From: Candidatus Wallbacteria bacterium
GTDB lineage: Bacteria; Muiribacteriota; JAQTZZ01
Length of the DNA stretch: 64,000 nt
Reading direction: 5' to 3'
Assembly: GCA_028687545.1 (NCBI GenBank)
Contig: JAQTZZ010000002.1
Span: 139,635 to 203,634 of the forward strand
Notes under the pieces: model-generated
Told to the model about the DNA's origin: nothing
What the model saw: the letters and a program-made list of their open reading frames with translations, nothing else
Database searches by the model: none
Part shown: positions 1,990 to 42,028 of the stretch, piece after piece
How positions within the stretch are numbered: the stretch's first letter is position 1
How the letters are laid out: each line of letters opens with the position of its first letter
Made by a program: the position numbers and the translations under genes

Positions 1990-2000
1990 ATCTCGCTGAG

Positions 2001-4640: not shown

Positions 4641-4652
4641 ACACGCGATGAG

Positions 4653-20469: not shown

Positions 20470-20994
20470 TCAGATCCAGTCAAGCAGATTCTCAAGCGAT
20501 TCCACTACGCAGCAGTCCAGTCCAGCCACCTTGCCCTGCTCACTCTCCCCGTAACCTGTCAGCACCAGAAAGCTCTTCTTCAACCCGGCGTTGAGTCCGC
20601 AAAGGACGTCAGAGTGCTTGTCGCCCACGAGGAATGATGATTCAAGGTCCAGTACGTATCTGTCCCGGGCCTCAAAGATCATACCAGGTTCAGGCTTCCG
20701 GCAGCTGCAGGGTCCGCTGTAATCCGGATGATGCGGGCAGATCAGAAAATCGTCGATCAGTCCGCCTGATTTCCGATTCAGTTCTTCGTTTACGGCCTGG
20801 GCAGCGGCCAGGTTGTACATCCCTTTGGCGATCCCGGCCTGGTTTGTCACAACGAGCAGGAGAAATCCCATTTCTTTCAGTTTTTTCAGGACTTCCGGAA
20901 CACCGGGTAACAATGCAACTGCAGCCGGATCGTGCAGGTAGTTCCGTTCAACTATCAAGGTCCCGTCACGGTCAAAAAAGAAAGCTTTTTTCAT
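20470..20994 (-). CDS. gmhB: D-glycero-beta-D-manno-heptose 1,7-bisphosphate 7-phosphatase (HAD family)
   Basis: FFFDRDGTL (HAD motif I), VVTNQAGIAKG, and the GmhB zinc-binding signature CPHHP...C.CRKPEPGM; 174 aa. Confidence 0.8.
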   Translation of the reverse strand: MKKAFFFDRDGTLIVERNYLHDPAAVALLPGVPEVLKKLKEMGFLLLVVTNQAGIAKGMYNLAAAQAVNEELNRKSGGLIDDFLICPHHPDYSGPCSCRKPEPGMIFEARDRYVLDLESSFLVGDKHSDVLCGLNAGLKKSFLVLTGYGESEQGKVAGLDCCVVESLENLLDWI

Positions 20995-21005: not shown

Positions 21006-22100
21006 TCAGCTTCCGATTCCCAGAACTTTTTCATAGGCTGAAAGAGTTTTCCTGGCTGTTTTCTCCCAGGTGAATTCTTTGCTGACTCTCTCTTTCAGAC
21101 GGCTGTTAGGCTGGGCTTTCCAGGCCCCTCTTAAAGCCTCCGCAATGCTGTCGACATTTCCCGGATCGCAGTAAAAGGCTTGATCCCCGAAATATTCCCT
21201 GGTGCACCCACCTTCGGTCACCACGAGCCTGCAGCCGAACAGGGCTGCCTCCAGCGAGGCGAGTCCTGGAGTTTCGAACCAGCTGGGCAGGGCATGTACC
21301 CTGGCCCTGCGATAAAACTTGCAAAGTTCCCGCTGCGGCATCGCCGATAATATTTCAGCGTTCCGGCCCTTCTCAAGCATGATTTTCGCATAAAGCTTCC
21401 GGTAACGCTTTTTCCCTGAAACAGAGCCGATGATCACTAGCGGCAGGTCGAGAAGGTTGGCGGCCCGGACCAGATTCAACCTGTTCTTGCGGTCATCGAT
21501 CCTGCCGACAGAGAGAACGAAATCCTCGAAGTCAATCCCTGGAGGGGATTCATCTCCTGTGGTCTCAACCAGATCCGAGTCGACGGCGTTCGGGATCACC
21601 ACAGCTTCAGCGGTTTTCCCGAAAAACCGCTCGAGATTGGAGATTTCCGCTCTGGAATTCGGCAGCAGCAGATCCACCCGGGAGAGGACGTCTCTGATCG
21701 CCTGGTAGTTTTTCAGGCTGGTGCTGCCTCCCCTGAACCTGCGGAAAGCTCTTTTAAAACCGAGCGAAAGGAAATCGATCAAATCCTGGGCAAGGTGCCG
21801 CAGCGGAATCTCCTGGTACCAGAAAACAGTGGAAAGGACGACTGGAGGCCGATTCGCCGGAAGTGCGTTAAAAAAAGAGATTACCTCATCCGAAAATCGG
21901 AAAAGGTGTATCAGGTCGCATTCTTTGGATTCAGCCGGATGGTTGAGGTACCGCACCTCACAGCCAAGTTTCCTCAAGTGCTGAGCAGTTTTATAGATCT
22001 GGGTCTCGGCACCCCCAGTCCGGAATTCCAGCCCTTCCAGAAGTTCAGAATAGAAGCCGATTTTCAAACTACTTAATTCCCTGTAAAGTCTGATAATCAT
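21006..22100 (-). CDS. glycosyltransferase family 4 (GT-B fold)
   Basis: C-terminal GT4 motif region (RARVHALPSWFETPGLASLEAALFGCRLVVTEGG). Start placed at the ATG at 22100; the track's TTG at 22127 would overlap rfbG more deeply. Confidence 0.7.
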   Translation of the reverse strand: MIIRLYRELSSLKIGFYSELLEGLEFRTGGAETQIYKTAQHLRKLGCEVRYLNHPAESKECDLIHLFRFSDEVISFFNALPANRPPVVLSTVFWYQEIPLRHLAQDLIDFLSLGFKRAFRRFRGGSTSLKNYQAIRDVLSRVDLLLPNSRAEISNLERFFGKTAEAVVIPNAVDSDLVETTGDESPPGIDFEDFVLSVGRIDDRKNRLNLVRAANLLDLPLVIIGSVSGKKRYRKLYAKIMLEKGRNAEILSAMPQRELCKFYRRARVHALPSWFETPGLASLEAALFGCRLVVTEGGCTREYFGDQAFYCDPGNVDSIAEALRGAWKAQPNSRLKERVSKEFTWEKTARKTLSAYEKVLGIGS

Positions 22101-23136
22101 CGATCTGTGCGTCAGTGAGAGCCGCAAGATCGGTTTTTTTCAGATAAAACGCCTTATACCAGTCGCAAGTATTGCTGATCATCCGTTCCTGCAAGAGCAA
22201 TGGATGCCAGCCGAGCCGGAAAAAGGCCTTGTCGCAATTCAGCCTTAGAATATTCGCTTCCTGAAACGAACCGCCAGAAGCGCGATAAGCGTTTTCCGGC
22301 TTGTCAAAGCCCCAGATCTCACTCATTTTTCTCACAAGTGTTTCCACGATGAGGTTCCCGGATGCCTGAGGACCGAAGTTGAAACTTTCGCCGCTTGGAA
22401 CTTTTCCTGTAAACAAAGCCTCAGCAAGCAGCAGGTACCCTCGCAGCGGCTCAAGCACATGCTGCCAGGGCCTGACTGACTGGGGATTGCGGATCAGCAC
22501 GGGTTCCCCCTTGCTCCAGGCTCTGACACAGTCCGGCACAAGCCTGTCAGGGGCCCAGTCGCCGCCTCCGATCACGTTTCCGGCTCTGACCGAAGCTATC
22601 TTGACAGGCAGATTCCCGAAAAAAGAACGGGAATATGATGAAAACACGATTTCAGCGGCCCCTTTGGAAGCGCTGTAAACATCTCTTCCCCCGAGCCTGT
22701 CGTTTTCCCGATAGCCAAAGTCCCAGTCCTTGTTTTCATAGCATTTATCGCTGGAGACGATTACTGCAGCGCAGGGATAAGCCAGTTCTCTCAAGGATTC
22801 CAGCAGATTGGCGGTTCCCATGATGTTTGAGGAGAAAGTTTCAATCGGATCGGCATACCCTTTGGAAACAATGGCCTGCGCCGCCAGATGGAAGACGAAT
22901 TCCGGCTGGATGTCGGAGATGATTTTCCTGAGGATTCTCAGATCCCTGATATCTGCAACATAATGGATGATCCGGCGCTCCAGGTTCAGTGTCTCGAACA
23001 TTGAGGGAGAACTGGGCACATCTTTAGATACTCCATATACTTTTGCACCAGCCCGGACCAGCCAGGCTGTAAGCCAGGAACCCTTGAACCCGGTGTTGCC
23101 GGTGATCAGTACTTTCCTGTCGCGGAAAAAATCCAT
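22069..23136 (-). CDS. rfbG: CDP-glucose 4,6-dehydratase
   Basis: Rossmann N-terminus (KVLITGNTGFKGSWLTAWL), DKCYEN, YSASKGAAE catalytic region, VRAGNVIGGGDW and IRNPQSVRPWQHVLEPL, matching the RfbG layout. Confidence 0.8.
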   Translation of the reverse strand: MDFFRDRKVLITGNTGFKGSWLTAWLVRAGAKVYGVSKDVPSSPSMFETLNLERRIIHYVADIRDLRILRKIISDIQPEFVFHLAAQAIVSKGYADPIETFSSNIMGTANLLESLRELAYPCAAVIVSSDKCYENKDWDFGYRENDRLGGRDVYSASKGAAEIVFSSYSRSFFGNLPVKIASVRAGNVIGGGDWAPDRLVPDCVRAWSKGEPVLIRNPQSVRPWQHVLEPLRGYLLLAEALFTGKVPSGESFNFGPQASGNLIVETLVRKMSEIWGFDKPENAYRASGGSFQEANILRLNCDKAFFRLGWHPLLLQERMISNTCDWYKAFYLKKTDLAALTDAQIDDYQTLQGIK

Positions 23137-23282
23137 CAGTCCTCCCAGACAAGTGAGAATGATATATCTCCTGCATTCACCCGCAGGTTATTTGTCGCTC
23201 AATCCAGATTTTATCATAAATCCTGCAATTTCATCAATTCAGAGAGTGGATAAAATCTTGTTTCTGAGATACAATTCGTGTC

Positions 23283-24320
23283 ATGGGAAACAAGAAAATC
23301 CTGGTGATCGCGGCCTACGCAGGAATCGGAGATTTTTTCCTGTCCCTGCCGATGTTCGAAACCCTGCATCAGCAATACAACACGAAATTCGACATCCTGG
23401 TGCGCTCTGACGCCAGATTTCTGCCGTTTATCAGGACTGTCGACCTGTTCAGCCATGTCTATATTTATGACCGCAAAGGAAAGCACAGTTCCTTTTCAGC
23501 CCAGTTCAGGCTCCTCAGAAGGTTGCGCCGGCAGAATTATGAGATCGGATTCACCCTTCATCCAGGCAAGCGCTATGTCCTGATGCTGTATCTGTCCGGA
23601 GCTGAAATCCGTGTCGGCGGATATGAATACTCTTTTCTCAAATATTTCCTGACCCACCCGGTCCCGGACCTTAAGGCCGACCCGATCTTTTTCAGGAAAT
23701 TCCAGGCAGGGGAAGTCCATGGACTGGACTGTTTTTTCTATTTTCTGGACTGCCTGGGCTTGAAATACGAGCGGAAAAAACCGGTAGTGTCCCTTGGAGA
23801 AATCGAAAAAAGTGCCGCTATCCTGATTTCCGGACTGAATAAGCCTCTGATCGGCATCAACACCGGATCTTCAGGCGAAGCCAAAAACTGGCCGCTGGAG
23901 AATTTTCTCGCTCTTGCTGAAAATCTCAAGAAGGAAAAAAAGGCTTCTCTGATCTTTTTCGGCGGTCCGGGAGAGGCCGATAAATTTTCGGTTTTTAAAA
24001 GCAGATTCCCTGCTGATCTGTATGCCATCGGAAACGATTTCCCGATTCTTCTCAACACAGCCCTCCTGAAAAAATGCGACCTGCTGATCTCCAACGACAC
24101 AGGCCTGGTGCACATCGCCTCATTTTTCGATCTGCCTGTCATCTCCATCGGTGGAGGCGCAAGAACAGGCAAGGCTTTTCTGGCCTGGAGCAAAAAATCC
24201 CGTAATCTTCTTGAATCAGTTGACTGCAATCTGCTCTGCAGAGAATGCGGCAATTGTGCCTGCGTAAAGAATATCAGGGTAGAGAGTGTGCTGAAGGCTG
24301 TGGATGAACTGCTTTCGTAG
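23283..24320 (+). CDS. glycosyltransferase family 9 (LPS heptosyltransferase-like)
   Basis: GT9 hallmarks: ILVIAAYAGIGDFF near the N-terminus and ISNDTGLVHIASFFDLPVISIGG near the C-terminus; 345 aa. Confidence 0.8.
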   Translation: MGNKKILVIAAYAGIGDFFLSLPMFETLHQQYNTKFDILVRSDARFLPFIRTVDLFSHVYIYDRKGKHSSFSAQFRLLRRLRRQNYEIGFTLHPGKRYVLMLYLSGAEIRVGGYEYSFLKYFLTHPVPDLKADPIFFRKFQAGEVHGLDCFFYFLDCLGLKYERKKPVVSLGEIEKSAAILISGLNKPLIGINTGSSGEAKNWPLENFLALAENLKKEKKASLIFFGGPGEADKFSVFKSRFPADLYAIGNDFPILLNTALLKKCDLLISNDTGLVHIASFFDLPVISIGGGARTGKAFLAWSKKSRNLLESVDCNLLCRECGNCACVKNIRVESVLKAVDELLS

Positions 24321-24344
24321 GGAACGGTCGCGACTGTTCCCTAC
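24317..24344. terminator. 28-bp near-perfect palindrome spanning the stop codons of two convergent glycosyltransferase genes
   Basis: GTAGGGAACGGTCGCGACTGTTCCCTAC is self-complementary except for one G·T pair; it contains TAG at 24318-24320 (+ gene) and the complement of CTA at 24341-24343 (- gene). No flanking T-tract. Confidence 0.4.
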
Positions 24345-25516
24345 TCCCGGCAGAGATTCTCAATTATCTCTAAAAATCTCGCGGAAATCACGCTGGTGTC
24401 GAAGAGGCGCACTGCACGCTCGCGGGCCATTTTTCCGAGCCTGGCGGCAGATCCGGGATGGGCGACCAGATTCAGCACCGCACCGCAGATTTCCGCGGCA
24501 CTGCGCTCATGCACAAGCACCGCTGCGTCCCCGACCACTTCCGGGATCGAGCCGCAGTAAGTAGTGACGATCGGAAGCTCACAGCTCATGGCTTCCACCA
24601 GTGCGATCCCGAACTGCTCTTCCCAGCTTTTCAAGGAAATGCTGCCGTGGATAAACACATCTGCCAGATTCAGGTATCTGCACAAATCCTTGTTGGGTAT
24701 GAAACCGGTGAACCTGGAACATTTATCAAGTCCCATTTTCCGGGCCTGTTCGAGATAACTGTCAAACAGCTTGCCGTTTCCCAGATAGTAATGGACAAAG
24801 CTGAAACCTTTCTTTTTCATGATCCCGTCAGCTTCGAGCAGGAAATCCAGACCTTTATTCTCTTCAATCTTTCCCACTGTCATCAAAACAGTTTCTCCGG
24901 AAAGTCCAAGCTCTCCGACCAGGTTCATGTCCTTGGGCTTTTTCCGGAAATTATCAGTATAAATGCCGTCATACAGCACAACCGACCGACCAGGATCAAC
25001 TCCTTCGATGATTTCCTTGTTTCTGATCCTGTTTGTCCAGGGCAGGAAAAGATTAGTCTCCCTGTTGATGGCTTTCCAGACATGGCGCATGTCAGACTTG
25101 CCCTGATAAAGGAAGGGAATGGTCTCAGCGTCGCGGAAGATAGTCTTATATCTGTAGTGATGCTCTTTCCTGAGCTTCAGCACGCAATAAGCTTCAAGGT
25201 CGCCCAGTGGGATGCAAAGGTCCATCTCAGCGAGAAAGCCGTCGTCAAAGCAGGGATATTCGGCCGACCTCCCGATAAAAAATTCAGGTCTGATCGGCGT
25301 AGCCAGCTTCCAGACTTCATACAGAGCCTTGCGGAAAAAGTTCCTGTTTTTCCTCTCCTGATTCGGGTAACAGCAGTTTACGCAACAGAGATTTCCTTCC
25401 CTGCCTTCGAAATAATATTTGTCTGTGATCCAAAAAAATTCATGCTTTTTAAAAGCTTCCGCAAAAATCCTGATTTCGCGGATATCCACGAGGTTGGACA
25501 GCACTGCGATCTTCAT
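24341..25516 (-). CDS. glycosyltransferase family 4
   Basis: C-terminal GT4 signature (SWEEQFGIALVEAMSCELPIVTTYCGSIPEVVGD); 391 aa; 4-bp overlap with the upstream GT2 gene. Confidence 0.85.
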   Translation of the reverse strand: MKIAVLSNLVDIREIRIFAEAFKKHEFFWITDKYYFEGREGNLCCVNCCYPNQERKNRNFFRKALYEVWKLATPIRPEFFIGRSAEYPCFDDGFLAEMDLCIPLGDLEAYCVLKLRKEHHYRYKTIFRDAETIPFLYQGKSDMRHVWKAINRETNLFLPWTNRIRNKEIIEGVDPGRSVVLYDGIYTDNFRKKPKDMNLVGELGLSGETVLMTVGKIEENKGLDFLLEADGIMKKKGFSFVHYYLGNGKLFDSYLEQARKMGLDKCSRFTGFIPNKDLCRYLNLADVFIHGSISLKSWEEQFGIALVEAMSCELPIVTTYCGSIPEVVGDAAVLVHERSAAEICGAVLNLVAHPGSAARLGKMARERAVRLFDTSVISARFLEIIENLCRE

Positions 25517-26274
25517 GTCCCACCCTCTTTTCGGGACTTGTCCAGGTAGAAAGCGTAAATCAGCCCGGTATGGAAAGATTCCAGCAGGCAGAGGTAAAAA
25601 CCGCGGATCCCGTCCCTGTATCCAAACTTCTGAAAATAGCGCTTGGCAAATGATTTCAACATTCTATGGATCACAAAGAAAGGGGTGATTCTCCTGGAAA
25701 ATCCATCCTGGCTGAGCTTCTCACCCTCAATCGCCGCATACCGGATTGTTTTTAGCGTAAACTGGTAGAGGTCACGCGCATTATCATGATAGCACCAGCC
25801 GGATAACCGCCCTACTGATCCGGCATAATCAAGAGATTCATGCACTGGTTTGTGGAAACGGCCGCTGCCTCGCCTGAACAGGCGGGGCATTGAAGTGTAA
25901 GTGTTGTAATCGCAATATAGAATTATCTCGCCCAGGAACAGATGCTTCCGTTTGAAATCATAAGCCTCATGTTCAGGCCTGTCCAGAGTGCTCCTGATGC
26001 TTTTCACCAGTTTTTCGGACAGATATTCATCGGAATCCAGCATCAGGATCCAGTCTCCTGAACATTGATCAATGCCGAAATTCCTCTGTTCCGAGAAATC
26101 GACCATTTTTCTGCGAAAGGTTTTAGCCTTGGGAAGATCGTCCAGCTGATTGAGCGTACCGTCTGAACTGAAATCGTCTACAATCACAAACTCATCGGCG
26201 ATTTCATAGGCTGAGAATACAGCCTTCTTGACCGTTTCTTCGCAATTTTTCGTGAGCATCACCACGGAGAGCAT
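25513..26274 (-). CDS. glycosyltransferase family 2
   Basis: N-terminal GT-A signature (LSVVMLTKNCEETV...VIVDDFSSDGT) and the DxD-type LDSDE motif; 253 aa. Confidence 0.8.
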   Translation of the reverse strand: MLSVVMLTKNCEETVKKAVFSAYEIADEFVIVDDFSSDGTLNQLDDLPKAKTFRRKMVDFSEQRNFGIDQCSGDWILMLDSDEYLSEKLVKSIRSTLDRPEHEAYDFKRKHLFLGEIILYCDYNTYTSMPRLFRRGSGRFHKPVHESLDYAGSVGRLSGWCYHDNARDLYQFTLKTIRYAAIEGEKLSQDGFSRRITPFFVIHRMLKSFAKRYFQKFGYRDGIRGFYLCLLESFHTGLIYAFYLDKSRKEGGT

Positions 26275-26406
26275 GCTGTCTCCAAATATTTTTCAGCTAT
26301 GTATTGTCTCAATATATGGGCTCCCAAAAGCAAAGTCAACAGCAGCCTGCCGATATTTATGAGGCTGTTGCTTGATTCAAGCCTGAGACACGCATATAAT
26401 TTTCTC

Positions 26407-27213
26407 ATGATTTGCGCGATCTGCGGTTTTTCCCGGAACCGGCTCTTCAGAGTAAAAGAGATGATGTTTGGCTTTCCCGAGGAATTCGATTATTTCGAGT
26501 GCGGATCATGCGGCTGTGTCCAGATTGCGGCAGTGCCTGACGACCTGTCCAGATATTATCCAGATAATTATTACAGCTATAACCGGATAGCCGGGAATGA
26601 AGAACCCGGTTTCAGGAGTTTCTGCAGATCTATCAGGAACAACCTGAAATTTTTTCGGGAATCATTGATCTGCAGAAGTACCCCGGTTTTGAGGTCCCCC
26701 CTGTTTGCAATCTTTAAAAGCCAGGATCTGCAGCTTCTGTTCAGGACCGGAATCACTGTCGATTCATCGATCCTGGACGTGGGATGCGGGACAGGCGCTT
26801 ATCTTTCAAGGCTTTCTGCCATCGGATTCAAAAACCTGCTTGGAATTGACCCTTATTTGAAATCCGACATCCGATATAAAAGCGGCCTCAGAATCCTCAA
26901 AAAAACAGTCCATGATCTGCAGGACCAGTTTGATCTTGTGATGCTTCATCACTCCCTCGAGCATATCCCGGACCAGCTCGCGACTCTCACAGCGTGCCAG
27001 CGACTTTTGAAAAGCGGCGGAGCCTGTCTTGTCCGGATTCCTGTGGCAGATTCTTACTGTTATCAAAGGTATGGGAAAAACTGGGTCAACCTGGATGCTC
27101 CCAGGCATCTCTTCCTGCATACTGCAAAAAGCCTGGCACTGATTTCAGGGAAAGCCGGTTTCAGGATCAGGGAAATCAATTATGACTCCAGTGATTTTTC
27201 TCTCTGGGGATAG
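26407..27213 (+). CDS. class I SAM-dependent methyltransferase with N-terminal Cys4 zinc-ribbon
   Basis: CAICGF...CGSCGC zinc ribbon; SAM-binding motif I ILDVGCGTGAY; DLVMLHHSLEHIPD. Start set at the ATG at 26407 (MICAICGF); the track ORF begins at 26299. Confidence 0.7.
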   Translation: MICAICGFSRNRLFRVKEMMFGFPEEFDYFECGSCGCVQIAAVPDDLSRYYPDNYYSYNRIAGNEEPGFRSFCRSIRNNLKFFRESLICRSTPVLRSPLFAIFKSQDLQLLFRTGITVDSSILDVGCGTGAYLSRLSAIGFKNLLGIDPYLKSDIRYKSGLRILKKTVHDLQDQFDLVMLHHSLEHIPDQLATLTACQRLLKSGGACLVRIPVADSYCYQRYGKNWVNLDAPRHLFLHTAKSLALISGKAGFRIREINYDSSDFSLWG

Positions 27214-27405
27214 AGCAGTATGAAAAAAACATCCCGCTGCGAGCGGAAAACTCTTACAGTGAAAATCCAGCCAAATCTATTTTCTCCAGGACCCAGATTC
27301 TCGATTTCAGGATACAGGCGGAAAGCCTGAATCTGGAAAAGAAAGGTGATCTGGCAGCCTTTATCCTAAGAAAGGACTGATCTGAAAAAAGCTTATATCC
27401 TTGTC

Positions 27406-28407
27406 TTGAACTGGAATGGCCTGCCGGATACTGTTGAATGCCTGGAATCAGCGCTGAAGCAGTCTTACCGGAATTACCAGATAATCCTGGTCGAAAACGG
27501 CTCGACCGACGGTTCCTATGAAAAAATCCTCGAGTACTTCAAAGGGCACCTGGATTGCGGATTTCTTTCTTCCTCACCTCACAAAGATAAAATTTTCCCT
27601 CTCTCGGAAAAGCCGCTGGATTTTATAGAATGCCGGGGGCAGCAGGACAGCGGGCAGCGGGTTGTGCTGATCAGAAATGAAATCAACCAGGGCTGGTCAG
27701 CCGGATTCAAGACCGGGCTCGACTTTTTCCTGAAAAAGAACGACGGCGATTATCTGCTGGTTTTGAATAATGATGTAGTGATCGAAGCTGATTATCTGGG
27801 AAAACTGGTTGAAACTGCGGTCAGAAACCCGGATTTCGGAGTAATCGGCTCCATTGCTTACTGGTATGAATACCCGGAGCGGATCATGTCTGTCGGTGGA
27901 GAATTCACATTTGCGGACTGGCAGCTTTATACTGATCTGTCAGACTTGAAAAGAAAGGCGGAAATGTCTTTCCCCAACGAATACCTGGTCAGCGTTCTGA
28001 CAGGATGCAGCATGTTCTTCCAGAAAAAATCCTTTTCCGTAGTCGGGCCAACCCCTGTTTATTATCATTTCTGGGAAGATCTGGAATTGTACTACAGGCT
28101 CAGAAATGCCGGGTTCGGCCTGATCCTGAACACTGACGCCAGGCTCTGGCATAAAGGAGGCACAGCCGAAAACTATCATCAGGGGCCGACAAAATTTTCT
28201 TCCTATTACGGCATCCGCAACAAGTTCATTTTTGCGAAGCGCAATCTGGGAATCCTGGAAAAAAGTTATATTTACACGGTCTTTGCGGCAAAAATGATGA
28301 TCAGAGTCTTCTTTTACAGAATCTCAAAGGAAGTCAAGCAGGGAATGCTCCGGGGCGTACTGGACGGATTCAGAGGCGTAACCGGTAAAATTGATTTAAA
28401 AAACTGA
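27406..28407 (+). CDS. glycosyltransferase family 2
   Basis: YILVLNWNG...IILVENGSTDGS and LVLNNDVV motifs. The frame is open back to 27370 with no ATG; the start is TTG at 27406 or CTG at 27382, after an AAAGGA site. Confidence 0.7.
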   Translation: MNWNGLPDTVECLESALKQSYRNYQIILVENGSTDGSYEKILEYFKGHLDCGFLSSSPHKDKIFPLSEKPLDFIECRGQQDSGQRVVLIRNEINQGWSAGFKTGLDFFLKKNDGDYLLVLNNDVVIEADYLGKLVETAVRNPDFGVIGSIAYWYEYPERIMSVGGEFTFADWQLYTDLSDLKRKAEMSFPNEYLVSVLTGCSMFFQKKSFSVVGPTPVYYHFWEDLELYYRLRNAGFGLILNTDARLWHKGGTAENYHQGPTKFSSYYGIRNKFIFAKRNLGILEKSYIYTVFAAKMMIRVFFYRISKEVKQGMLRGVLDGFRGVTGKIDLKN

Positions 28408-28424
28408 CTCCCAGTGAGTGACCA

Positions 28425-29267
28425 CTAATAATTTTTCAGCTTTGAATTATCACCCCAGAATTTCAAAGGTTCATAGTCAGGATACGGATACACTCCCAGA
28501 TCAAGCTCGATGCTCTTCCCGGTCCTTGAAAGATAATCCAGCACCATCTGACGCACAGTCACTGGTTTGCCGCTGCAGATGTTGAATATGCCGGATTCCA
28601 GCTCCTGGAGGGCCACCCTGGCGATGTAGCAGACGGCCAGTTCCACGGGCAGATAGTCCCGCACCTGCTCCCCGCCGGACATGGGAAACGATTTTTCCCC
28701 TTTGGACAATGCAAGATCGAGTTGAGAAAACAGCGATTTTTCACTTTGCCCCTTGCCATGCAGGTAAAAAGGACGCAGCCACTTCAGGGCAAAAGGTTTT
28801 TTCACTGCGAATTCCTCCAGGAACCTGCGCAGAGTATCCTTGGCCAGTGCATATGGCAGGACCGGCCTGACATCCATCTTTTCAGAGAGGCATCCTTCCT
28901 GCATTCCGTATTCCAGGCAGGTCCCCAATGCCGTAACATTCTCAAGACCGTGCTCGACAAGATTCTTCAGGAAAAAATAGCTCTGGGGAAGGTTCCGTTC
29001 AAAATGGAAAAGCTCTTTGTAATTGGGCAACCCTTGCCAGGCCAGGTGAATCACCAGATCTGGATTTCCGAAATATCTGAAAAGATCCCGCTCGTCTTCT
29101 CCAACGATCTGATACTGGATATATCTGACCCAGCCCCACCAGTCGGATTTGGCGGCGCGAGCCTGGTCGCAGTCCGTAGCCACCACCACATGCCCCAATC
29201 TCAACAACTCCGTGATCAGATGATTTCCCATGAAACCGGCTGCGCCTGTCACTAATATTTTCTTCAT
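28425..29267 (-). CDS. NAD-dependent epimerase/dehydratase family protein (likely nucleotide-sugar reductase/epimerase)
   Basis: Rossmann N-terminus MKKILVTGAAGFMGNHL and a short-chain dehydrogenase-like fold; 280 aa; sits inside the CDP-sugar tailoring set. Confidence 0.75.
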   Translation of the reverse strand: MKKILVTGAAGFMGNHLITELLRLGHVVVATDCDQARAAKSDWWGWVRYIQYQIVGEDERDLFRYFGNPDLVIHLAWQGLPNYKELFHFERNLPQSYFFLKNLVEHGLENVTALGTCLEYGMQEGCLSEKMDVRPVLPYALAKDTLRRFLEEFAVKKPFALKWLRPFYLHGKGQSEKSLFSQLDLALSKGEKSFPMSGGEQVRDYLPVELAVCYIARVALQELESGIFNICSGKPVTVRQMVLDYLSRTGKSIELDLGVYPYPDYEPLKFWGDNSKLKNY

Positions 29268-29282
29268 GGGCTCTCCTCCGTC

Positions 29283-30503
29283 TTACAATACTTCCAGTTT
29301 CGGGATCGGCTTCACGAATTTTCCTTCCCACTCCCCGATATATCCAAGTTGAGACATGATCTCATCAGACAGATTCCAGGGCAGGATCAGGATCAGATCC
29401 GGTTTTGTTTTCCGGATTTCATCCTCAGACATGACAGGGATATGGCTTCCAGGCAGGAACTTCCCGATTTTGTGGGGTGATTTATCCACCACATAAGAGA
29501 TCAGATCCCGTTTGATTCCGCAGTAGTTGAGCAGTGTGTTCCCTTTGGCGGCAGCGCCGTATGCAGCAACCGTCTTCCTGCTTTTTTTCGCATCGATCAG
29601 GAACGATAAAAGTTCATTTTTTACAGAGTCCGCCTGGGCTTGAAATCCTCGATAATAATCCGGATCCGACATCCCCTCTTTTTCCTCCCTGTTCAGTAAG
29701 TCATTGTATCTGCTCGATAACTGGCAGTTCCCGGAATGTGCGGCATAGATCCTCAGCGAGCCGCCGTGGGTGGGAAGTTCGTCCACATCGAAAATCGTCA
29801 AACCGTGGGAGCTGAAAATCCGGCTGACTGTGGTCAGGGAGAGATAGGAAAAATGCTCATGATAGATTGTATCGAACTGGTTCCCTGAGATCAGTTTCAT
29901 CAGATGTGGGAATTCCATCGTGATGGTGCCTCCTGGTTTAAGCACAAGTTTCATGCCTGAGACAAAATCATTGATGTCAGGCACATGGGCCAGCACATTG
30001 TTGCCGACCAGCAGGTCGGCCTGCAGGCCTTCCCGGCAGAGTTCGAAGGCAGCTTTTTCAGTGAAAAACTCCACCCTGGTCTGTATCCCTTTCTGAATGG
30101 CTTCAAAGGCGGTGTTACGGGCTGGCTCGATTCCCAGGACCGGGATTCCGTCTTCCTTGAAATACTGCAGCAGATATCCGTCATTGGAGGCGATTTCCAG
30201 AACGAGCGACTGGGGTCCCAGGGACAGGCGCCGCCTGATCAGGCCGGCAAAATTCCTGCAGTGCATAAGCCAGCTCTGGGAATAAGAGGAAAAATATGCG
30301 TAATCAGCGGAAAAAATCTCATCATGCCGCTTGAATTCATCGATCTGTACCAGAAAACAGCTATCGCAAACAAATATTTTCAGCGGGTAAAAAGTCTCAG
30401 GTTCGTTGAGCTGCAGTTCGGTAAGGAATGAATTGGAGGGCGGGGAATTTCCCAGGTCGATCAGCACGTGATTCAACGGTTTTTTGCAGTAGCGGCAGTT
30501 CAT
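29283..30503 (-). CDS. nucleotide-sugar C-methyltransferase-like (zinc-ribbon plus class I methyltransferase plus C-methyltransferase C-terminal domain)
   Basis: N-terminal CRYCKKP...CDSC zinc ribbon, SAM-binding LEIASNDG and DLLVGNNVLAHVPD, a C-terminal domain typical of TylC3-type sugar C-methyltransferases; 406 aa. Confidence 0.7.
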   Translation of the reverse strand: MNCRYCKKPLNHVLIDLGNSPPSNSFLTELQLNEPETFYPLKIFVCDSCFLVQIDEFKRHDEIFSADYAYFSSYSQSWLMHCRNFAGLIRRRLSLGPQSLVLEIASNDGYLLQYFKEDGIPVLGIEPARNTAFEAIQKGIQTRVEFFTEKAAFELCREGLQADLLVGNNVLAHVPDINDFVSGMKLVLKPGGTITMEFPHLMKLISGNQFDTIYHEHFSYLSLTTVSRIFSSHGLTIFDVDELPTHGGSLRIYAAHSGNCQLSSRYNDLLNREEKEGMSDPDYYRGFQAQADSVKNELLSFLIDAKKSRKTVAAYGAAAKGNTLLNYCGIKRDLISYVVDKSPHKIGKFLPGSHIPVMSEDEIRKTKPDLILILPWNLSDEIMSQLGYIGEWEGKFVKPIPKLEVL

Positions 30504-31048
30504 TTTATCCCTCTGTAATCAGGCTTGAGCAGCTCGAAATTCCTGTCCCGCTCAGAAATCTCACTGATTTCCAAGGGCCATCTGATGCCAAGAATCGGGT
30601 CATCAAAGCGCAGACCCCGTTCATGCTCCCTGGAATAGAAACCAGTGTGGCAATACAACATTTCGCAATCGTCAGTCAATGTCTGAAACCCGTGAGCAAA
30701 ATATTCAGGCACAATCAGCATGAGTCTGTTCTCCGCAGAAAGTTCTACCCCTGCAAAGTGCAGAAAGGTGTCGGATCCGGCCCGCAGATCGACGATTACA
30801 TCGTAAACAGCTCCCCTGATGCACCTGACCAGCTTCATTTCGCTGCTGGGAGGGATCTGATAATGCAGGCCGCGGATAGCGGATGCCATTTTTGTATAGG
30901 TATGGTTCATCTGAACTATCTCCTTCTGGAAACCGATCTCTTTGAATTCATTCCTGCAGAAAACCCTGGCAAACCAGCCCCGGTTGTCGCTGATCGGTTC
31001 CGGTTCGATCAGGTGTGCTCCTTCCAAGCCGATTCCGGTAAATTTCAT
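30500..31048 (-). CDS. dTDP/CDP-4-dehydro-6-deoxysugar 3,5-epimerase-like (RmlC cupin family)
   Basis: 182-aa cupin with RmlC-like motifs (DNRGWFARVF; GLHYQ; GFYSREHERGLRFDDP); 4-bp overlaps with both neighbours. Confidence 0.75.
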   Translation of the reverse strand: MKFTGIGLEGAHLIEPEPISDNRGWFARVFCRNEFKEIGFQKEIVQMNHTYTKMASAIRGLHYQIPPSSEMKLVRCIRGAVYDVIVDLRAGSDTFLHFAGVELSAENRLMLIVPEYFAHGFQTLTDDCEMLYCHTGFYSREHERGLRFDDPILGIRWPLEISEISERDRNFELLKPDYRGIK

Positions 31049-31902
31049 AAATCCCTTCGCATTGGTCTGAAGCTGCAGTTGAGCACATCGTTAATTTCCA
31101 GAGCCCGTTCGATCAGTTCTTTCTTAAGGATCCGGTTTGTTTTGAGGTCAAACACTCTGTACCCCTGAGCCCGCATCAGCCGGATCAGATCATATGCGCT
31201 GTGCCCGAGCATTTTGTAAATCTGCGGGGAAAGTTCGATCAGAATGACCGGTTTCCGTGTGAGGGATGACAGGAAGTTCTGCATTCCAAGCAGGACCTTG
31301 TATTCATACCCTTCGCAGTCGATCTTGATCATGCCCACATCATGCAGAGGATGATCCGCTACATAATTATCAAAGGTGTCGATCATCACCACTTCCTCGG
31401 ATTCAAGCTCGTCCTTACCGGGAACAAAGCTGTTGGCACCGATATTTCCCTTAGCCACGTAAATGGTCTGCCTGCCAGTGGTGTCGCCGAGCGCGAAATT
31501 ATTGAGCTGAAATGCAGGACTGGGATTCAATTCCTTCAGTCTCTGCAGGCGGTTGAAATACTTCGGTACAGGTTCGAATGCGTGGACAGAGCCGTGGCTC
31601 CCCACCAGACCTGCGGCATAAGCGGAAATGTAGCCGATGTTGGCGCCGATGTCCACAAAAGTCTGTCCTCTGGTCAGGAACCGCTTCAATTCCACCAGAA
31701 TGTCGATTTCATATCTGCCATGATACATTTCCGCGATCATACCGTCCCTGAGCCCGAAATCAAACTCAAACGCAATTCCATTCACACGGCCTAAATGCCT
31801 TCCTGAGACGGGGGGGGTTCTGAAGCACATACCGGTTCTGGTCGTGATCCTGCGAATCAGCAGCCTGGGATTCTGAAACATCATTTTCAATATTCGATTC
31901 AT
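31045..31902 (-). CDS. FkbM-family methyltransferase
   Basis: FVDIGANIGYISAYAAG...VHAFEP is the FkbM SAM-binding signature; 285 aa. Confidence 0.7.
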   Translation of the reverse strand: MNRILKMMFQNPRLLIRRITTRTGMCFRTPPVSGRHLGRVNGIAFEFDFGLRDGMIAEMYHGRYEIDILVELKRFLTRGQTFVDIGANIGYISAYAAGLVGSHGSVHAFEPVPKYFNRLQRLKELNPSPAFQLNNFALGDTTGRQTIYVAKGNIGANSFVPGKDELESEEVVMIDTFDNYVADHPLHDVGMIKIDCEGYEYKVLLGMQNFLSSLTRKPVILIELSPQIYKMLGHSAYDLIRLMRAQGYRVFDLKTNRILKKELIERALEINDVLNCSFRPMRRDL

Positions 31903-32029
31903 GGATTACCTCAGAAGAAATATTCAGGATGATATGATAATGGATGTCTTTTTTCAACTGTTAAACTTTCATTAAAACTCAAATTTCAATCCGGAAAAAG
32001 GCTTTCACACCTATATCTTCCTTCTCCTA

Positions 32030-32830
32030 ATGTCGATGGGTTTAAAAATCATCCCAGGTGGAACCATGATTGATACAGATAAACTGCAGGTACTGATCGA
32101 GAAAGCCGGAAACCTCCAGATCCGGGATTATAAATCTCTGGACACGATCGTGCACGAAGCTGAATCAATTTTCGATCGAACTCCCGATAATTCCCGCTTT
32201 CTGAACAAATTGAAAAGCATCAATTTCTCCCCGCTTTCGATCGGCGCCTCCTCGCAGGAACTCAGCACTTCCTGGACATCCGGCAGAGATAAGATTATTT
32301 CTTTCTTCAAAGATATAATCGAAGAGAGCAGACTCAATTTTTTCTTCGAAAATTCAGGGGAAATCTCAGAACATTTTTCGGTTAAAGCGGATGAATTCTT
32401 CATCTGGCAGTTCCACGACGAAGAAATGCGGGGACAGCTGGAGGAACTTTTAGAGAAATTGACGGCTTCACCCGTACTTCATCTTGCAGTGCCGGGGAAA
32501 ATGCGTTTCCACGACCTGGACCAGATTATTCCAGACCTCAGAATGGCGATCTTTCTGCTCTCTTTCCGGGAAAGCAACTATCCTGACTTCAAACTCTCGC
32601 TCCCGATTCCGGAAGCCCTGCTTCAGGAAATGTTCGTGCAGCTGGGTTATTTTCTGGGAAAACTCGGCCCGGAAAAAGTGCTGATATTCGTCAGAGAGGG
32701 CCAGGGCATTAAGAAACCGTCATTTCTGGAAAACCTGGATCATGTTGTTTTCACGGACAAGGGAAGCTGGAAAAATGAATTCACCTCAAAGTTTCAGGGT
32801 GAGAATCGGAAAAAAATCATTCTTCACTAG
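32030..32830 (+). CDS. hypothetical protein (266 aa), no confident family
   Basis: Long ORF with a plausible start region; the 3' end overlaps the convergent zinc-ribbon gene by 14 bp; no diagnostic motif recognised. Confidence 0.45.
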   Translation: MSMGLKIIPGGTMIDTDKLQVLIEKAGNLQIRDYKSLDTIVHEAESIFDRTPDNSRFLNKLKSINFSPLSIGASSQELSTSWTSGRDKIISFFKDIIEESRLNFFFENSGEISEHFSVKADEFFIWQFHDEEMRGQLEELLEKLTASPVLHLAVPGKMRFHDLDQIIPDLRMAIFLLSFRESNYPDFKLSLPIPEALLQEMFVQLGYFLGKLGPEKVLIFVREGQGIKKPSFLENLDHVVFTDKGSWKNEFTSKFQGENRKKIILH

Positions 32831-34085
32831 GAATTTCCGGATTATCTTCGGCAAAATCCAGTGACTCGCAGCCAAACAGGTCGTCATAGGCAAAGTAGAT
32901 CATTCCCGCACTCAACGGCAGCGTGGCCAGCAAACCGATCCCGGCAAGAAGAGCCCCAAGTAAATTGATTGAAAACAGCGACAGCCCGAATTTGACAAAT
33001 CCGGCCCTGTTTTTGCTGATCAGCTTGATACTGTAAAGTGTGGCCTCCTGATATTCGAGTTTGCGGTCAATCACCAGCAGAGTGGTGAAAATGTAATGCA
33101 CAAAAAGCACTATCCCGGGAATCACCAGCAGAATAGTACCTACGCTGATCTGAATGCCAGTGACGACACCCAGCAGCACCAGGGGCTTTCCGTAAATCTG
33201 CCCCATCTGCAGGTCCTGATATCCCGCATCCTTGAACTGGGAGACATGATGGCAGAACTGATAAAAACCGGCGCTCATGACCGGAGTGATGATCAGAGCC
33301 ATCAGCAGTGTGGAGAAATACAGCACTGCCGGGGGGAACATCAGGTGGACTGAAAGATAGAGTACTGAGAAAAACAGGGTTGCGATGAATAAAAACAGAA
33401 AAGACCAGATCAGGGTAATGGCTGGTTCGGTTTTCAGGATATCGATGCTTTTAAACAGATATTCCTTGGTTTTTCCTGGCAGGATGATGGCGCTCTTATA
33501 AGCGATCCCGATGTCTGAGGTGTTTTTTTTCTGCGTTGATTTGCTCACAGCTCCTCCTGCCGGAGCCTCAATTTTCGGTTCATCCTTCTTTTCGATTTCA
33601 GTCAGGAGACTGCCAATCAAATGCTCTTTCTGAATAATCTTCTTTTTATGCTCGTCTGTATCAGGGGACATCTGCTTTAATCCATCCAGCAGATCTTCAT
33701 CAACCAGTTCATCCGGTAAACTTTTTTTATCAGCTGGAAGGGATGCTTTATCATTCACTGCAGGTTTCTGCGTGGTGCCAGTCTTGGAAACCTGGGCCGG
33801 CTTGGAGGGGATGCCGGGTTTGGCAGGAGTTTTGGGAGCTGCTGAAGATAATGGGGCAGCGGTTTTGGAAGCGGCAGCCTGCTTAGGAGGAGTTGCACTT
33901 TTTTCGGTTGCTTTCTGTGCCTGTGGAGTTGTTCCGGATTTCTGCCCGGTCCCTCCTCCACCTTTCGCAGCTGCATCAGGCTGGGCTGGTTCGAGACCGT
34001 CTACCCTGCTGCCGCAACTGGCGCAAAATCTCTTCCCCCTTGCCTTGTAATCGCCGCATTTAGGACAAGCCATCTCACCCTCCAA
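32817..34085 (-). CDS. zinc-ribbon domain membrane protein with a Pro/Ala/Lys/Thr-rich linker
   Basis: N-terminal CPKCG...CASCG zinc ribbon, ~150-aa low-complexity linker, C-terminal multi-pass membrane domain. Confidence 0.6.
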   Translation of the reverse strand: MEGEMACPKCGDYKARGKRFCASCGSRVDGLEPAQPDAAAKGGGGTGQKSGTTPQAQKATEKSATPPKQAAASKTAAPLSSAAPKTPAKPGIPSKPAQVSKTGTTQKPAVNDKASLPADKKSLPDELVDEDLLDGLKQMSPDTDEHKKKIIQKEHLIGSLLTEIEKKDEPKIEAPAGGAVSKSTQKKNTSDIGIAYKSAIILPGKTKEYLFKSIDILKTEPAITLIWSFLFLFIATLFFSVLYLSVHLMFPPAVLYFSTLLMALIITPVMSAGFYQFCHHVSQFKDAGYQDLQMGQIYGKPLVLLGVVTGIQISVGTILLVIPGIVLFVHYIFTTLLVIDRKLEYQEATLYSIKLISKNRAGFVKFGLSLFSINLLGALLAGIGLLATLPLSAGMIYFAYDDLFGCESLDFAEDNPEIPSEE

Positions 34086-37855: not shown

Positions 37856-37856
37856 C

Positions 37857-40120: not shown

Positions 40121-40939
40121 ATGAAAGTCATTATCACTGCAGCAGTCACAGGTGCAGAAACCACCCGCGCCCAGCAGCCGAATCTGCCGGTAACTCCGGC
40201 GGAAATCGCCCAGTCCACATATGAAGCCTGCATGGCCGGTGCAGCCATCGTCCACCTGCATGTACGAAAAGACGACGGGACTCCTACCCAGGATGTGGGT
40301 ATCTTTGAGAAAACAATTAAACTGATCCGCGAGAAATGCGAGATTGTGATCGAGATCACCACAGGCGGAGCAGTGGGCATGAGCGATGATGAGCGAGTGG
40401 CTCCGGTCAAACTCAAGCCCGACCTTGCGTCCCTCGACTGCGGCTCAGTCAATTTCGGCGACGACATCCTGCCCAACGGTTTCCCCAGCCTGCGCAGATT
40501 CGCCCGCCTGATGCGCGAACATGGCGTCAAGCCCACCATTGAATGCTTCGATTACGGCCACATCAACAATGCCAAGCTCCTGATCAAGGAAGGCCTGATC
40601 GATCCGCCTTATTATTTCACCTTTGTGACTGGTGTACCGGGTGGAATTCCGGGCACAGTCAAGAATCTTGTCTTCATGCGGGATGAGCTGCCTGAAAATA
40701 CTGTCTGGTCCAGCATCGGCATCGGCGGCAAGGCGTCGCTTCCCATGGGCCTGGCAGCCCTTCTGATGGGCGGCAATGTGCGCACCGGGTTCGAAGACAA
40801 CATCTATTTCAGGAAAGGCCAGCTCGCCAAGAGCAACGCCCAGCTCGTAACCCGGATCGTGGAGTTCGCCAAGGAACTGGGGCACGAGATCGCCACCCCG
40901 GCGGAAGCGAGAGAGATTTTAGGATTGAAGAAAAAGTGA
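40121..40939 (+). CDS. kce: 3-keto-5-aminohexanoate cleavage enzyme (BKACE/DUF849 family)
   Basis: N-terminal VIITAAVTGAETT...PNLPVTPAEIA...AGAAIVHLHVR matches the BKACE family; 272 aa; GGGGGTG Shine-Dalgarno; next to kdd and kamA. Confidence 0.8.
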   Translation: MKVIITAAVTGAETTRAQQPNLPVTPAEIAQSTYEACMAGAAIVHLHVRKDDGTPTQDVGIFEKTIKLIREKCEIVIEITTGGAVGMSDDERVAPVKLKPDLASLDCGSVNFGDDILPNGFPSLRRFARLMREHGVKPTIECFDYGHINNAKLLIKEGLIDPPYYFTFVTGVPGGIPGTVKNLVFMRDELPENTVWSSIGIGGKASLPMGLAALLMGGNVRTGFEDNIYFRKGQLAKSNAQLVTRIVEFAKELGHEIATPAEAREILGLKKK

Positions 40940-40976
40940 ATATCAGTCTGACAAAATTTTTCATTGAGGAGGTTAA

Positions 40977-42017: not shown

Positions 42018-42028
42018 AAGGAGTGCCT

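Follow-up and report, generated by a model that had tools for sequence, protein, structure and literature searches.

A rearranged gene cassette for a probable CDP-linked, methyl-branched 6-deoxy sugar in a cell-surface locus of a Candidatus Wallbacteria genome

Gene content and operon structure

The stretch of DNA analysed here (the window) comprises 64,000 nt from a Candidatus Wallbacteria bacterium (GCA_028687545.1, contig JAQTZZ010000002.1, positions 139,635–203,634 of the forward strand). Wallbacteria are a candidate phylum without cultured members. The window holds an ordinary cell-surface sugar locus with a rearranged version of a widespread gene cassette, and its annotation is routine and well supported. 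All genes that an initial annotation had listed between 22069 and 31902 are present there. The features are as follows.

8172–10140, minus strand: Kdo transferase-like and lipid A late acyltransferase-like genes (context; PF04413, 6e-18; PF03279, 5e-33)
20470–20994, minus: gmhB-like heptose 1,7-bisphosphate phosphatase, LPS core heptose supply (context; HAD-IIIA domain above cutoff; NF006506, 148 bits, and TIGR00213, 129 bits, each slightly below its curated cutoff)
21006–22067, minus: GT4 glycosyltransferase (Pfam Glycos_transf_1 and Glyco_transf_4; likely start TTG at 22067)
22069–23136, minus: rfbG, CDP-glucose 4,6-dehydratase (TIGR02622; PDB 1wvg/1rkx; ribosome-binding site GGGAGG before the ATG)
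23283–24320, plus: GT9 glycosyltransferase, heptosyltransferase family (PF01075, 1e-17)
24341–25516, minus: GT4 glycosyltransferase (PF00534, 1.6e-26)
25513–26274, minus: GT2 glycosyltransferase (PF00535, 3.4e-18; 4-nt overlap with the downstream GT4 gene)
26299–27213, plus: class I SAM methyltransferase (PF13489, 1e-22; CxxC...CxxC region at the N-terminus)
27406–28407, plus: GT2 glycosyltransferase (PF00535, 2.8e-19; convergent with the SDR gene)
28425–29267, minus: short extended SDR, putative NDP-4-ketohexose 4-reductase (PF01370, 2e-21; motifs GAAGFMG and YALAK)
29283–30503, minus: NDP-hexose C-methyltransferase (CMT) of the TylC3/TcaB9/MtmC family (PF08421, PF13489, PF08484; PDB 4rv9, 5t64, 3ndi)
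30500–31048, minus: RmlC-like NDP-4-keto-6-deoxyhexose epimerase (PF00908, 3e-60; TIGR01221)
31045–31902, minus: FkbM-family methyltransferase at the start of the operon (TIGR01444, 111 bits, cutoff 38)
31929–31957, minus: sigma-70-like promoter match 5' of fkbM (TTGAAA-17-TATCAT, 10 of 12 positions, a consensus match only)

Three of these genes were absent from the initial annotation: the class I methyltransferase (26299–27213), the second GT4 and gmhB. The latter two are located directly 3' of rfbG, just beyond the interval covered at that time.

Reading of the junction sequences shows that fkbM, rmlC-like, CMT and SDR form one tightly coupled operon. ATGA start-stop overlaps join fkbM to rmlC-like and rmlC-like to CMT (4 nt in the latter case), and the SDR gene begins 15 nt after CMT with a GGAGG ribosome-binding site. 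Compared with an independent Logan assembly, the window has a 1-bp deletion that ends the class I methyltransferase prematurely; the Logan assembly has one extra base near position 27212 and yields a product of 340 amino acids.

Enzymes of the sugar pathway

RfbG matches the curated equivalog model TIGR02622 with 466.7 bits (cutoff 278). Specificity for dTDP, which would have spoken against the initial annotation, is not borne out, since the dTDP model gives 101 bits (cutoff 365); the GDP model gives 43 (cutoff 415). The closest solved structures are the CDP-glucose dehydratases 1wvg (2e-101) and 1rkx (2.5e-100), and no other PDB chain reaches 1e-20. A 3,6-dideoxyhexose route (CDP-abequose, -tyvelose, -paratose or -ascarylose) was considered and rejected. 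It calls for the PMP-dependent 3-dehydrase DdhC/E1 and the reductase DdhD/E3, and no DegT/aminotransferase-like or E3-like protein was found among the window ORFs.

The CMT has a three-part architecture of a zinc domain (PF08421, Methyltransf_13, 2e-22), a class I SAM core (PF13489, 4e-12) and a C-terminal domain (PF08484, Methyltransf_14, 9.5e-62). It matches no NCBIfam model. Residues 2–406 align with the solved MtmC, KijD1 and TcaB9 (4rv9, 5e-71; 5t64, 2.5e-66; 3ndi, 9e-66), although identity to TcaB9 is only 32%. In this alignment C3, C6, C46, C49, Y68, H173, Y214, E216 and H217 are retained. These residues we take to be the four-cysteine zinc site and the catalytic Tyr, His and Tyr-x-Glu-His of TcaB9, and both sites are thus intact. 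The protein is accordingly a C-methyltransferase of the sugar type, as had been proposed, and a non-sugar methyltransferase is not borne out.

Every solved relative is a C3-methyltransferase, and by homology the CMT would methylate C3 of an NDP-4-ketohexose with SAM. Methylation at C5 in the same pathway, giving a 5-C-methyl (gem-dimethyl) 6-deoxysugar, would have a precedent in noviose. The noviose pathway uses a dehydratase, an RmlC-like epimerase, a C-methyltransferase (NovU), a 4-reductase and an O-methyltransferase, a set that the genes of the locus mirror as well, and the epimerase has NovW among its solved relatives (2e-26). We consider a NovU-like reaction improbable, however, as the conserved TcaB9 residues are those positioned for C3 chemistry and the C-methyl-branched LPS sugars in the literature searched carry 3-C-methyl groups (PMC7203242, PMC3539893).

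The RmlC-like protein scores 168.4 bits against TIGR01221 (cutoff 155.75). Its catalytic H62, K72, Y132 and D168 are conserved relative to a reference sequence. Its similarity to dTDP enzymes (~1e-43) exceeds that to the CDP-specific WbcA (1e-23), a difference that is not decisive for nucleotide preference. For the SDR, the PDB contains only distant relatives. Because its characterised relatives are distant, the role as a reductase is assigned from gene context; in 25 related loci, SDR homologues (at least 40% identity) begin 1.0–1.6 kb past the start of CMT.

For the FkbM protein no relative was found in the PDB. Its nearest homologues (39–44% identity) are located in other glycan loci, and none was found beside the cassette in 85 related loci. 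It is the operon structure that would connect this enzyme to the methyl-branched sugar.

A widespread cassette and the supply of CDP-glucose

The comparison set consists of 82 loci with CMT relatives from many phyla; FkbM and CmcI neighbours were counted in 85 loci. Each of two homologue searches yielded approximately 8,000 strong homologues among the candidates scored. The retrieved loci cover many bacterial phyla and include metagenome-assembled genomes labelled archaeal. The usual setting is a conserved cassette, rfbF-rfbG-rmlC-like-CMT-SDR, often followed by a CmcI-type O-methyltransferase. The order rfbF-rfbG-rmlC-CMT on the same strand is present in 44 of the 82 loci, with an SDR (at least 40% identity) next in 25 of the 44, and nine further loci have the order rfbF-rfbG-CMT-rmlC. 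The three nearest CMT relatives (64–66% identity) are found in the same cassette together with a CmcI-type methyltransferase, an enzyme present in 37 of 85 loci.

The CMT clade is strongly associated with CDP-glucose enzymes. A cytidylyltransferase-like gene lies within 7 kb of the CMT relative in 75 of 82 loci, and all 74 neighbouring nucleotidyltransferases scanned match TIGR02623 at E ≤ 1e-10 (the curated cutoff is cleared in the one full result table shown). A CDP-glucose 4,6-dehydratase is present in at least 56 of the 82 loci. Among 59 dehydratases, RfbG of the window included, 57 match TIGR02622 alone (E ≤ 1e-60).

The pathway genes of the window are a rearranged copy of this five-gene cassette. 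The rmlC-like, CMT and SDR genes are contiguous on the minus strand from 31048 down to 28425. On the other hand, rfbF is absent, rfbG is not immediately upstream of rmlC-like and CMT, and an FkbM methyltransferase is found where relatives often have the CmcI type.

The position of rfbG counts against a single pathway. It lies 5.3 kb and five genes away from the methyltransferase operon in a separate transcription unit, where it is packed against GT4 and gmhB: the probable start of GT4 abuts the rfbG stop codon, and the gmhB-like gene follows 11 nt downstream of GT4. There might be two pathways. CMT, RmlC-like protein and SDR would then use a dTDP- or GDP-4-keto-6-deoxyhexose from another source, and the CDP-6-deoxyhexose arising from RfbG would stay unmethylated and go to the adjacent GT4. 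The dTDP enzymes among the best solved relatives of the RmlC-like protein and a minority of CMT relatives without a CDP-type dehydratase nearby agree with such an arrangement. However, RfbG is the sole NDP-hexose 4,6-dehydratase among the window ORFs, the closest CMT relatives (60–66% identity) directly follow rfbF-rfbG, and the window has no second reductase or epimerase to finish a separate CDP route. A single CDP-dependent pathway is therefore preferred, and two pathways have little probability.

The initial annotation had found no glucose-1-phosphate cytidylyltransferase in the window, and closer searches agree. No ORF of at least 150 amino acids contains an NTP_transferase domain, a tblastn probe of the window returned nothing, and a profile of 75 RfbF sequences gave a best E-value of 3.5 against the six reading frames of the 64 kb. 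The supply of CDP-glucose is therefore assumed. Since the contig of this metagenome-assembled genome is 222 kb long and the window covers only part of it, rfbF may lie elsewhere.

Loss of rfbF, the disrupted gene order and the frameshift in one methyltransferase gene of this assembly might also indicate a decaying remnant that no longer makes the sugar. This is quite unlikely, as the pathway ORFs are all complete and their catalytic residues intact, the ribosome-binding sites and the translational coupling have been retained, and the independent read assembly does not contain the frameshift.

Proposed pathway, acceptor and known systems

The initial interpretation as a C-/O-methylated or branched 6-deoxyhexose pathway is supported and sharpened by the family scores, the solved relatives and the 82-locus comparison. 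With a probability of roughly 0.6, the locus makes a methyl-branched 6-deoxyhexose and attaches it to a glycan of the cell envelope, the LPS core being the most likely one. CDP-glucose would come from a cytidylyltransferase encoded outside the window. RfbG would oxidise and dehydrate it to CDP-4-keto-6-deoxy-D-glucose, whose 4-keto group would acidify the C3 and C5 protons. The RmlC-like cupin may then epimerise C5, with or without C3, and the zinc-domain CMT may transfer the methyl group of SAM to the C3 enolate. Reduction at C4 by the short SDR would give the likely product, CDP-6-deoxy-3-C-methylhexose, with L-manno or L-talo as the preferred configuration. The sugar would be transferred by one of the five glycosyltransferases, and FkbM and/or the class I methyltransferase possibly add an O-methyl group.

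Regarding the target, LPS or capsule had been suggested; gene context favours LPS, specifically its core, over capsule. The genes for Kdo transferase-like, lipid A acyltransferase-like and GT9 proteins and gmhB are all found within 15 kb, an LPS-core-type setting, and no Wzx, Wzy, Wza/Wzc, ABC exporter or initiating phosphoglycosyltransferase is encoded among the window ORFs. Decoration of the LPS core is favoured for these reasons. The same sugar might be destined for a capsule, an exopolysaccharide or a protein-linked glycan, which we regard as rather unlikely. In favour of such a destination, GT2 and GT4 are generic enzyme families, the GT9 protein is under the cutoff of every heptosyltransferase equivalog model, and the Wallbacteria envelope is uncharacterised.

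C-methyl-branched sugars are usually associated with antibiotics, as their building blocks, and are regarded as rare in LPS, where the known examples are virenose (Coxiella) and 3-C-methylrhamnose (a few rhizobia and Burkholderia). TylC3-family C3-methyltransferases act in dTDP pathways, namely MtmC (D-mycarose), TcaB9 (D-tetronitrose) and KijD1 (kijanose); nogalose is a further sugar of this kind. The CMT of the window shares the three-domain fold, the zinc site and the active-site residues of these enzymes, and the pathways likewise proceed from a 4,6-dehydratase to C-methylation beside the 4-keto group, epimerisation and 4-reduction. They differ in yielding dTDP sugars, mostly 2-deoxy or 3-amino, for actinomycete antibiotics, whereas the window has CDP-type partners in an envelope glycan locus.

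The CDP-6-deoxy-L-altrose/CDP-D-fucose pathway of Campylobacter jejuni HS:41, with all steps biochemically established, resembles the proposal in leading from CDP-glucose through a 4,6-dehydratase and a 3,5-epimerase acting on CDP-4-keto-6-deoxyglucose to a C4-reductase (PMC12369002). Unlike the window, it has no C-methyltransferase, includes a pyranose-furanose mutase and encodes the cytidylyltransferase within the cluster (PMC12369002). In Coxiella burnetii, the virenose pathway is an in silico proposal for a 6-deoxy-3-C-methylhexose of LPS, in which a TylCIII-like methyltransferase acts on an NDP-4-keto-6-deoxyhexose; it starts from GDP-mannose or dTDP-glucose instead of CDP-glucose (PMC3539893). 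3-C-methylrhamnose is a known LPS sugar as well (PMC7203242).

Annotated examples of the cassette are found on a Desulfolutivibrio plasmid, in Sinorhizobium meliloti pSymB (SMb21416-18) and on a Brachyspira hyodysenteriae plasmid (PMC4053727). They share the gene order and 51–62% (CMT), ~50% (RmlC-like) and ~50% (SDR) identity with the window, which differs in lacking rfbF and a CmcI-type methyltransferase, in the displaced rfbG and in the FkbM gene heading the operon. In the literature searched no characterisation of the cassette product was found, and the cassette family itself appears uncharacterised; it probably converts CDP-glucose to a methyl-branched 6-deoxy sugar.

CDP-vinelose (CDP-6-deoxy-3-C-methyl-2-O-methyl-L-talose) was reportedly described in Azotobacter vinelandii in the 1960s. 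As a CDP-linked 6-deoxyhexose with one C-methyl and one O-methyl group, it has the composition expected from the gene set of the window. To our knowledge, no genes have been assigned to vinelose. A. vinelandii is credited with an rfbG gene (Gavini 1997, as cited in PMC5335844). It is a tentative suggestion, more doubtful than probable, that fkbM-rmlC-CMT-SDR and rfbG make a vinelose-type CDP-6-deoxyhexose with 3-C-methyl and O-methyl groups, and that rfbF-rfbG-rmlC-CMT-SDR(-CmcI) is the genetic basis of CDP-vinelose-like sugars. If so, many bacterial phyla would commonly carry methyl-branched deoxysugars in their envelopes, and such sugars would not be rare curiosities; the comparative data show that the CDP-dependent cassette is very common. 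To the known examples the window adds a rearranged one from a candidate phylum, a compact four-enzyme set suited to in vitro reconstitution.

Genes and operon layout of the glycan locus

Profile searches recovered all genes that the initial annotation had listed for the interval 22069–31902. A class I methyltransferase within the interval, and a second GT4 gene and a gmhB-like phosphatase just beyond it, had not been listed.

Genes of the interval 22069–31902 and its edge
20470–20994, gmhB-like phosphatase, just beyond the interval
21006–22067, second GT4 glycosyltransferase, just beyond the interval
22069–23136, minus strand, rfbG, CDP-glucose 4,6-dehydratase (TIGR02622, 466.7 bits, curated cutoff 278)
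23283–24320, plus strand, GT9 glycosyltransferase (profile search)
24341–25516, minus strand, GT4 glycosyltransferase (profile search)
25513–26274, minus strand, first GT2 glycosyltransferase (profile search)
26299–27213, plus strand, class I methyltransferase
27406–28407, plus strand, second GT2 glycosyltransferase (profile search)
28425–29267, minus strand, NAD-dependent short-chain reductase (SDR), 280 aa (profile search)
29283–30503, minus strand, NDP-hexose C-methyltransferase (CMT), 406 aa (Methyltransf_13 zinc domain, class I core and C-terminal Methyltransf_14)
30500–31048, minus strand, RmlC-like cupin (TIGR01221, 168 bits, cutoff 156)
31045–31902, minus strand, FkbM-family methyltransferase (profile search)

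The SDR, CMT, RmlC-like and FkbM genes are all located on the minus strand. ATGA start-stop overlaps join fkbM, the rmlC-like gene and CMT, and the SDR gene follows CMT after 15 nt with a GGAGG ribosome-binding site. All four genes are translationally coupled as a single unit. Upstream of fkbM, the 127-nt gap contains a sigma-70-like match, at the level of consensus only; promoter and terminator scans likewise gave consensus-level matches only. The rfbG gene lies on the same strand, 5.3 kb from this operon. The probable start codon of the second GT4 gene, a TTG, directly adjoins the rfbG stop codon, and gmhB follows this GT4 gene after 11 nt.

The same locus is also found in an independent Logan assembly (run SRR22315507), on a 30-kb contig that lies inside the window. 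At 27205–27215 the window carries a 1-bp deletion (GGGGAT-AGAG) compared to GGGGATCAGAG of the Logan assembly (locus L001, 13285–13300). The resulting TAG stop cuts the class I methyltransferase short in the window, whereas the Logan gene call comprises 340 aa and extends to about window position 27380. Either strain variation or an error in assembly accounts for the deletion.

The glycan operon is directly adjoined by a convergent gene pair with a 14-nt overlap (32030–34085). One gene encodes a 266-aa protein with a weak, sub-threshold match to the CAP12/Pycsar TIR effector domain (E 6e-4), the other a 422-aa zinc-ribbon membrane protein (weak BPSS1780-family match). At 36176–39503 (minus strand) a 559-aa radical SAM protein, with best matches to B12-binding radical SAM families (all below cutoff), is encoded next to an asparagine synthase-like amidotransferase, and a small TPR protein is found upstream in the Logan gene call. 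Such an arrangement may represent a modification system. At 40121–43273 (plus strand), three consecutive genes encode beta-keto acid cleavage enzyme (BKACE), a protein resembling zinc dehydrogenases and lysine 2,3-aminomutase, which suggests beta-lysine or lysine-degradation metabolism. A 739-aa fusion of trehalose-6-phosphate synthase and phosphatase (OtsA-OtsB) is encoded at 55115–57334 (minus strand). At 142–7982 (plus strand) a TPR protein precedes two tandem paralogues of 879 and 1,109 aa, in which an N-terminal radical SAM/SPASM domain is fused to long TPR regions.

Identity of the sugar-modifying enzymes

The dehydratase is of the CDP type. The only solved structures matched by the rfbG product with E-values below 1e-20 are the CDP-glucose 4,6-dehydratases 1wvg and 1rkx (E about 1e-100). 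The dTDP-glucose dehydratase model reaches only 101 bits vs a cutoff of 365, which argues against the dTDP-specificity that the initial annotation had considered. CMT is of the sugar type and, among solved structures, is not closer to non-sugar methyltransferases. Its full length aligns with the three sugar C3-methyltransferases of known structure MtmC (4rv9, 5e-71), KijD1 (5t64) and TcaB9 (3ndi), after which the best solved match is a generic SAM methyltransferase (3e-5). In the alignment, Cys3, Cys6, Cys46 and Cys49 of CMT correspond to the four zinc cysteines of TcaB9, and Tyr68, His173, Tyr214, Glu216 and His217 to its Tyr76, His181, Tyr222, Glu224 and His225. We take the roles of these TcaB9 residues to be those described in its mutagenesis literature. 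The RmlC-like protein retains the catalytic His62, Lys72, Tyr132 and Asp168, and the SDR contains the motifs GAAGFMG and YALAK.

Among 5.8 billion protein clusters the closest homologue of CMT shares only 65–66% identity. The rfbG product has a mean identity of 43.5% to the dehydratases of related cassettes (mean 47% among themselves). This value falls within their spread, and judged by these identities rfbG does not appear to be a clear phylogenetic outlier.

The statement of the initial annotation that the window encodes no glucose-1-phosphate cytidylyltransferase (RfbF) holds. No NTP_transferase domain was detected in any ORF of at least 150 aa in the 64-kb window, and an rfbF probe found no match in it by tblastn. 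An RfbF profile built from 75 sequences of related loci gave a best E-value of 3.5 against six-frame segments of at least 25 aa of the window.

Proposed pathway and its glycan

RfbG would form CDP-4-keto-6-deoxy-D-glucose. Its 4-keto group would activate C3-H and C5-H, allowing epimerization by the cupin and methylation at C3 from SAM. Reduction at C4 by the SDR would follow epimerization and methylation and yield a CDP-6-deoxy-3-C-methylhexose. We infer the order of steps, methylation at C3 rather than at C5 (the NovU-type alternative) and the stereochemistry. A 3,6-dideoxyhexose pathway was rejected because neither DdhC nor DdhD is present in the window.

CDP-vinelose (6-deoxy-3-C-methyl-2-O-methyl-L-talose) has been isolated from Azotobacter vinelandii. 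In a search for a link between this species and the cassette, no paper on vinelose was found in the literature searched, and the best 120 protein matches to a Pseudomonadales CMT include no Azotobacter entry. According to Gavini 1997, as cited in PMC5335844, A. vinelandii carries an rfbG gene. CDP-specific 3,5-epimerase and C4-reductase activities have been demonstrated for Campylobacter jejuni HS:41 (PMC12369002). 3-C-methylrhamnose is a known LPS sugar (PMC7203242), with records from Burkholderia andropogonis, Azorhizobium caulinodans and Phyllobacterium trifolii, and virenose is recorded in Coxiella (PMC3539893).

A decoration of the LPS core, probably assembled on the cytoplasmic face, is favored because Kdo transferase-like and lipid A acyltransferase-like genes (8172–10140) and GT9 are present, gmhB tightly follows rfbG-GT4, and a domain search of the window ORFs revealed no flippase, polymerase, ligase or ABC exporter. 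A 2,656-aa ORF (10137–18107, minus strand), composed nearly throughout of TPR and HEAT repeats (dozens of matches), separates the lipid A acyltransferase-like gene from radA.

The CDP-type dehydratase, the CMT residues and the cassette context thus support the initial reading of a branched or methylated deoxysugar. It is refined in that the genes form a rearranged cassette and, of LPS and capsule, the LPS core is favored.

The cassette in related loci

A search of one genome per species for CMT relatives yielded at least 597 loci with up to 62% identity. They are mostly bacterial and cover many phyla; two belong to metagenome-assembled genomes labelled archaeal. These close homologues of the cassette, on contigs binned as Promethearchaeota and Candidatus Methanovirga (L019, L073), reflect either horizontal transfer or mis-binning.

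Eighty-two loci were analyzed, including two annotated examples added from plasmid records. A cytidylyltransferase-like gene lies within 7 kb in 75 of them, and all 74 such neighbors scanned match TIGR02623 (RfbF). At E≤1e-60, TIGR02622 is the sole family matched by 57 of the 59 dehydratases nearby, a set that includes the one in the window. An RmlC-like gene is present in 77/82 loci. In 44/82 loci, rfbF, rfbG, rmlC and CMT follow one another in this order on a single strand within 3.2 kb, and 25 of these continue with a match to the SDR of the window (at least 40% identity); nine more loci have the order rfbF-rfbG-CMT-rmlC. The three closest metagenomic CMT relatives (64–66% identity) also lie in this cassette, with an RMNT_CmcI-family methyltransferase after it. 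CmcI-type genes occur in 37/85 loci, mostly right after the SDR. Some related loci (L084 at 9048–12022, L020, L021, L023, L033, L045 and L060) contain a second CMT paralogue without the zinc domain (Methyltransf_23 and Methyltransf_14), and in L084 a TylF-type methyltransferase also follows the SDR; the sugars of these organisms may accordingly carry two or three methyl groups.

Beside rfbF and rfbG, public annotation reads 'class I SAM-dependent methyltransferase' and 'dTDP-4-dehydrorhamnose 3,5-epimerase family protein'. Sinorhizobium meliloti SMb21416-18 are listed as ddhA, ddhB and NDP-hexose 3-C-methyltransferase (PMC4053727). For a characterized CDP C-methyltransferase the literature searched gives annotation-level mentions only. 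The CDP cassette, which is extremely widespread, appears from the searchable literature to be biochemically uncharacterized.

A recurrent linkage of FkbM to the cassette was not seen (0/85 loci). The closest FkbM homologues (39–44% identity) are located in unrelated Wzx/Wzy/glycosyltransferase loci or beside heptose genes, none of them next to the cassette; some of the nearest also weakly match the Vibrio cholerae RfbT model. Therefore, a dedicated role of FkbM is suggested solely by operon structure, its one tie to the branched sugar. FkbM may substitute functionally for the CmcI-type O-methyltransferase; alternatively, its target may be a different residue of the completed glycan.

Compared to the cassette, the window lacks rfbF and the CmcI-type methyltransferase, its rfbG has moved into the GT4-gmhB unit, and the first gene of the operon encodes a methyltransferase of the FkbM type. 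The rmlC-CMT-SDR core, on the other hand, is intact, and the locus is a rearranged copy of the cassette.
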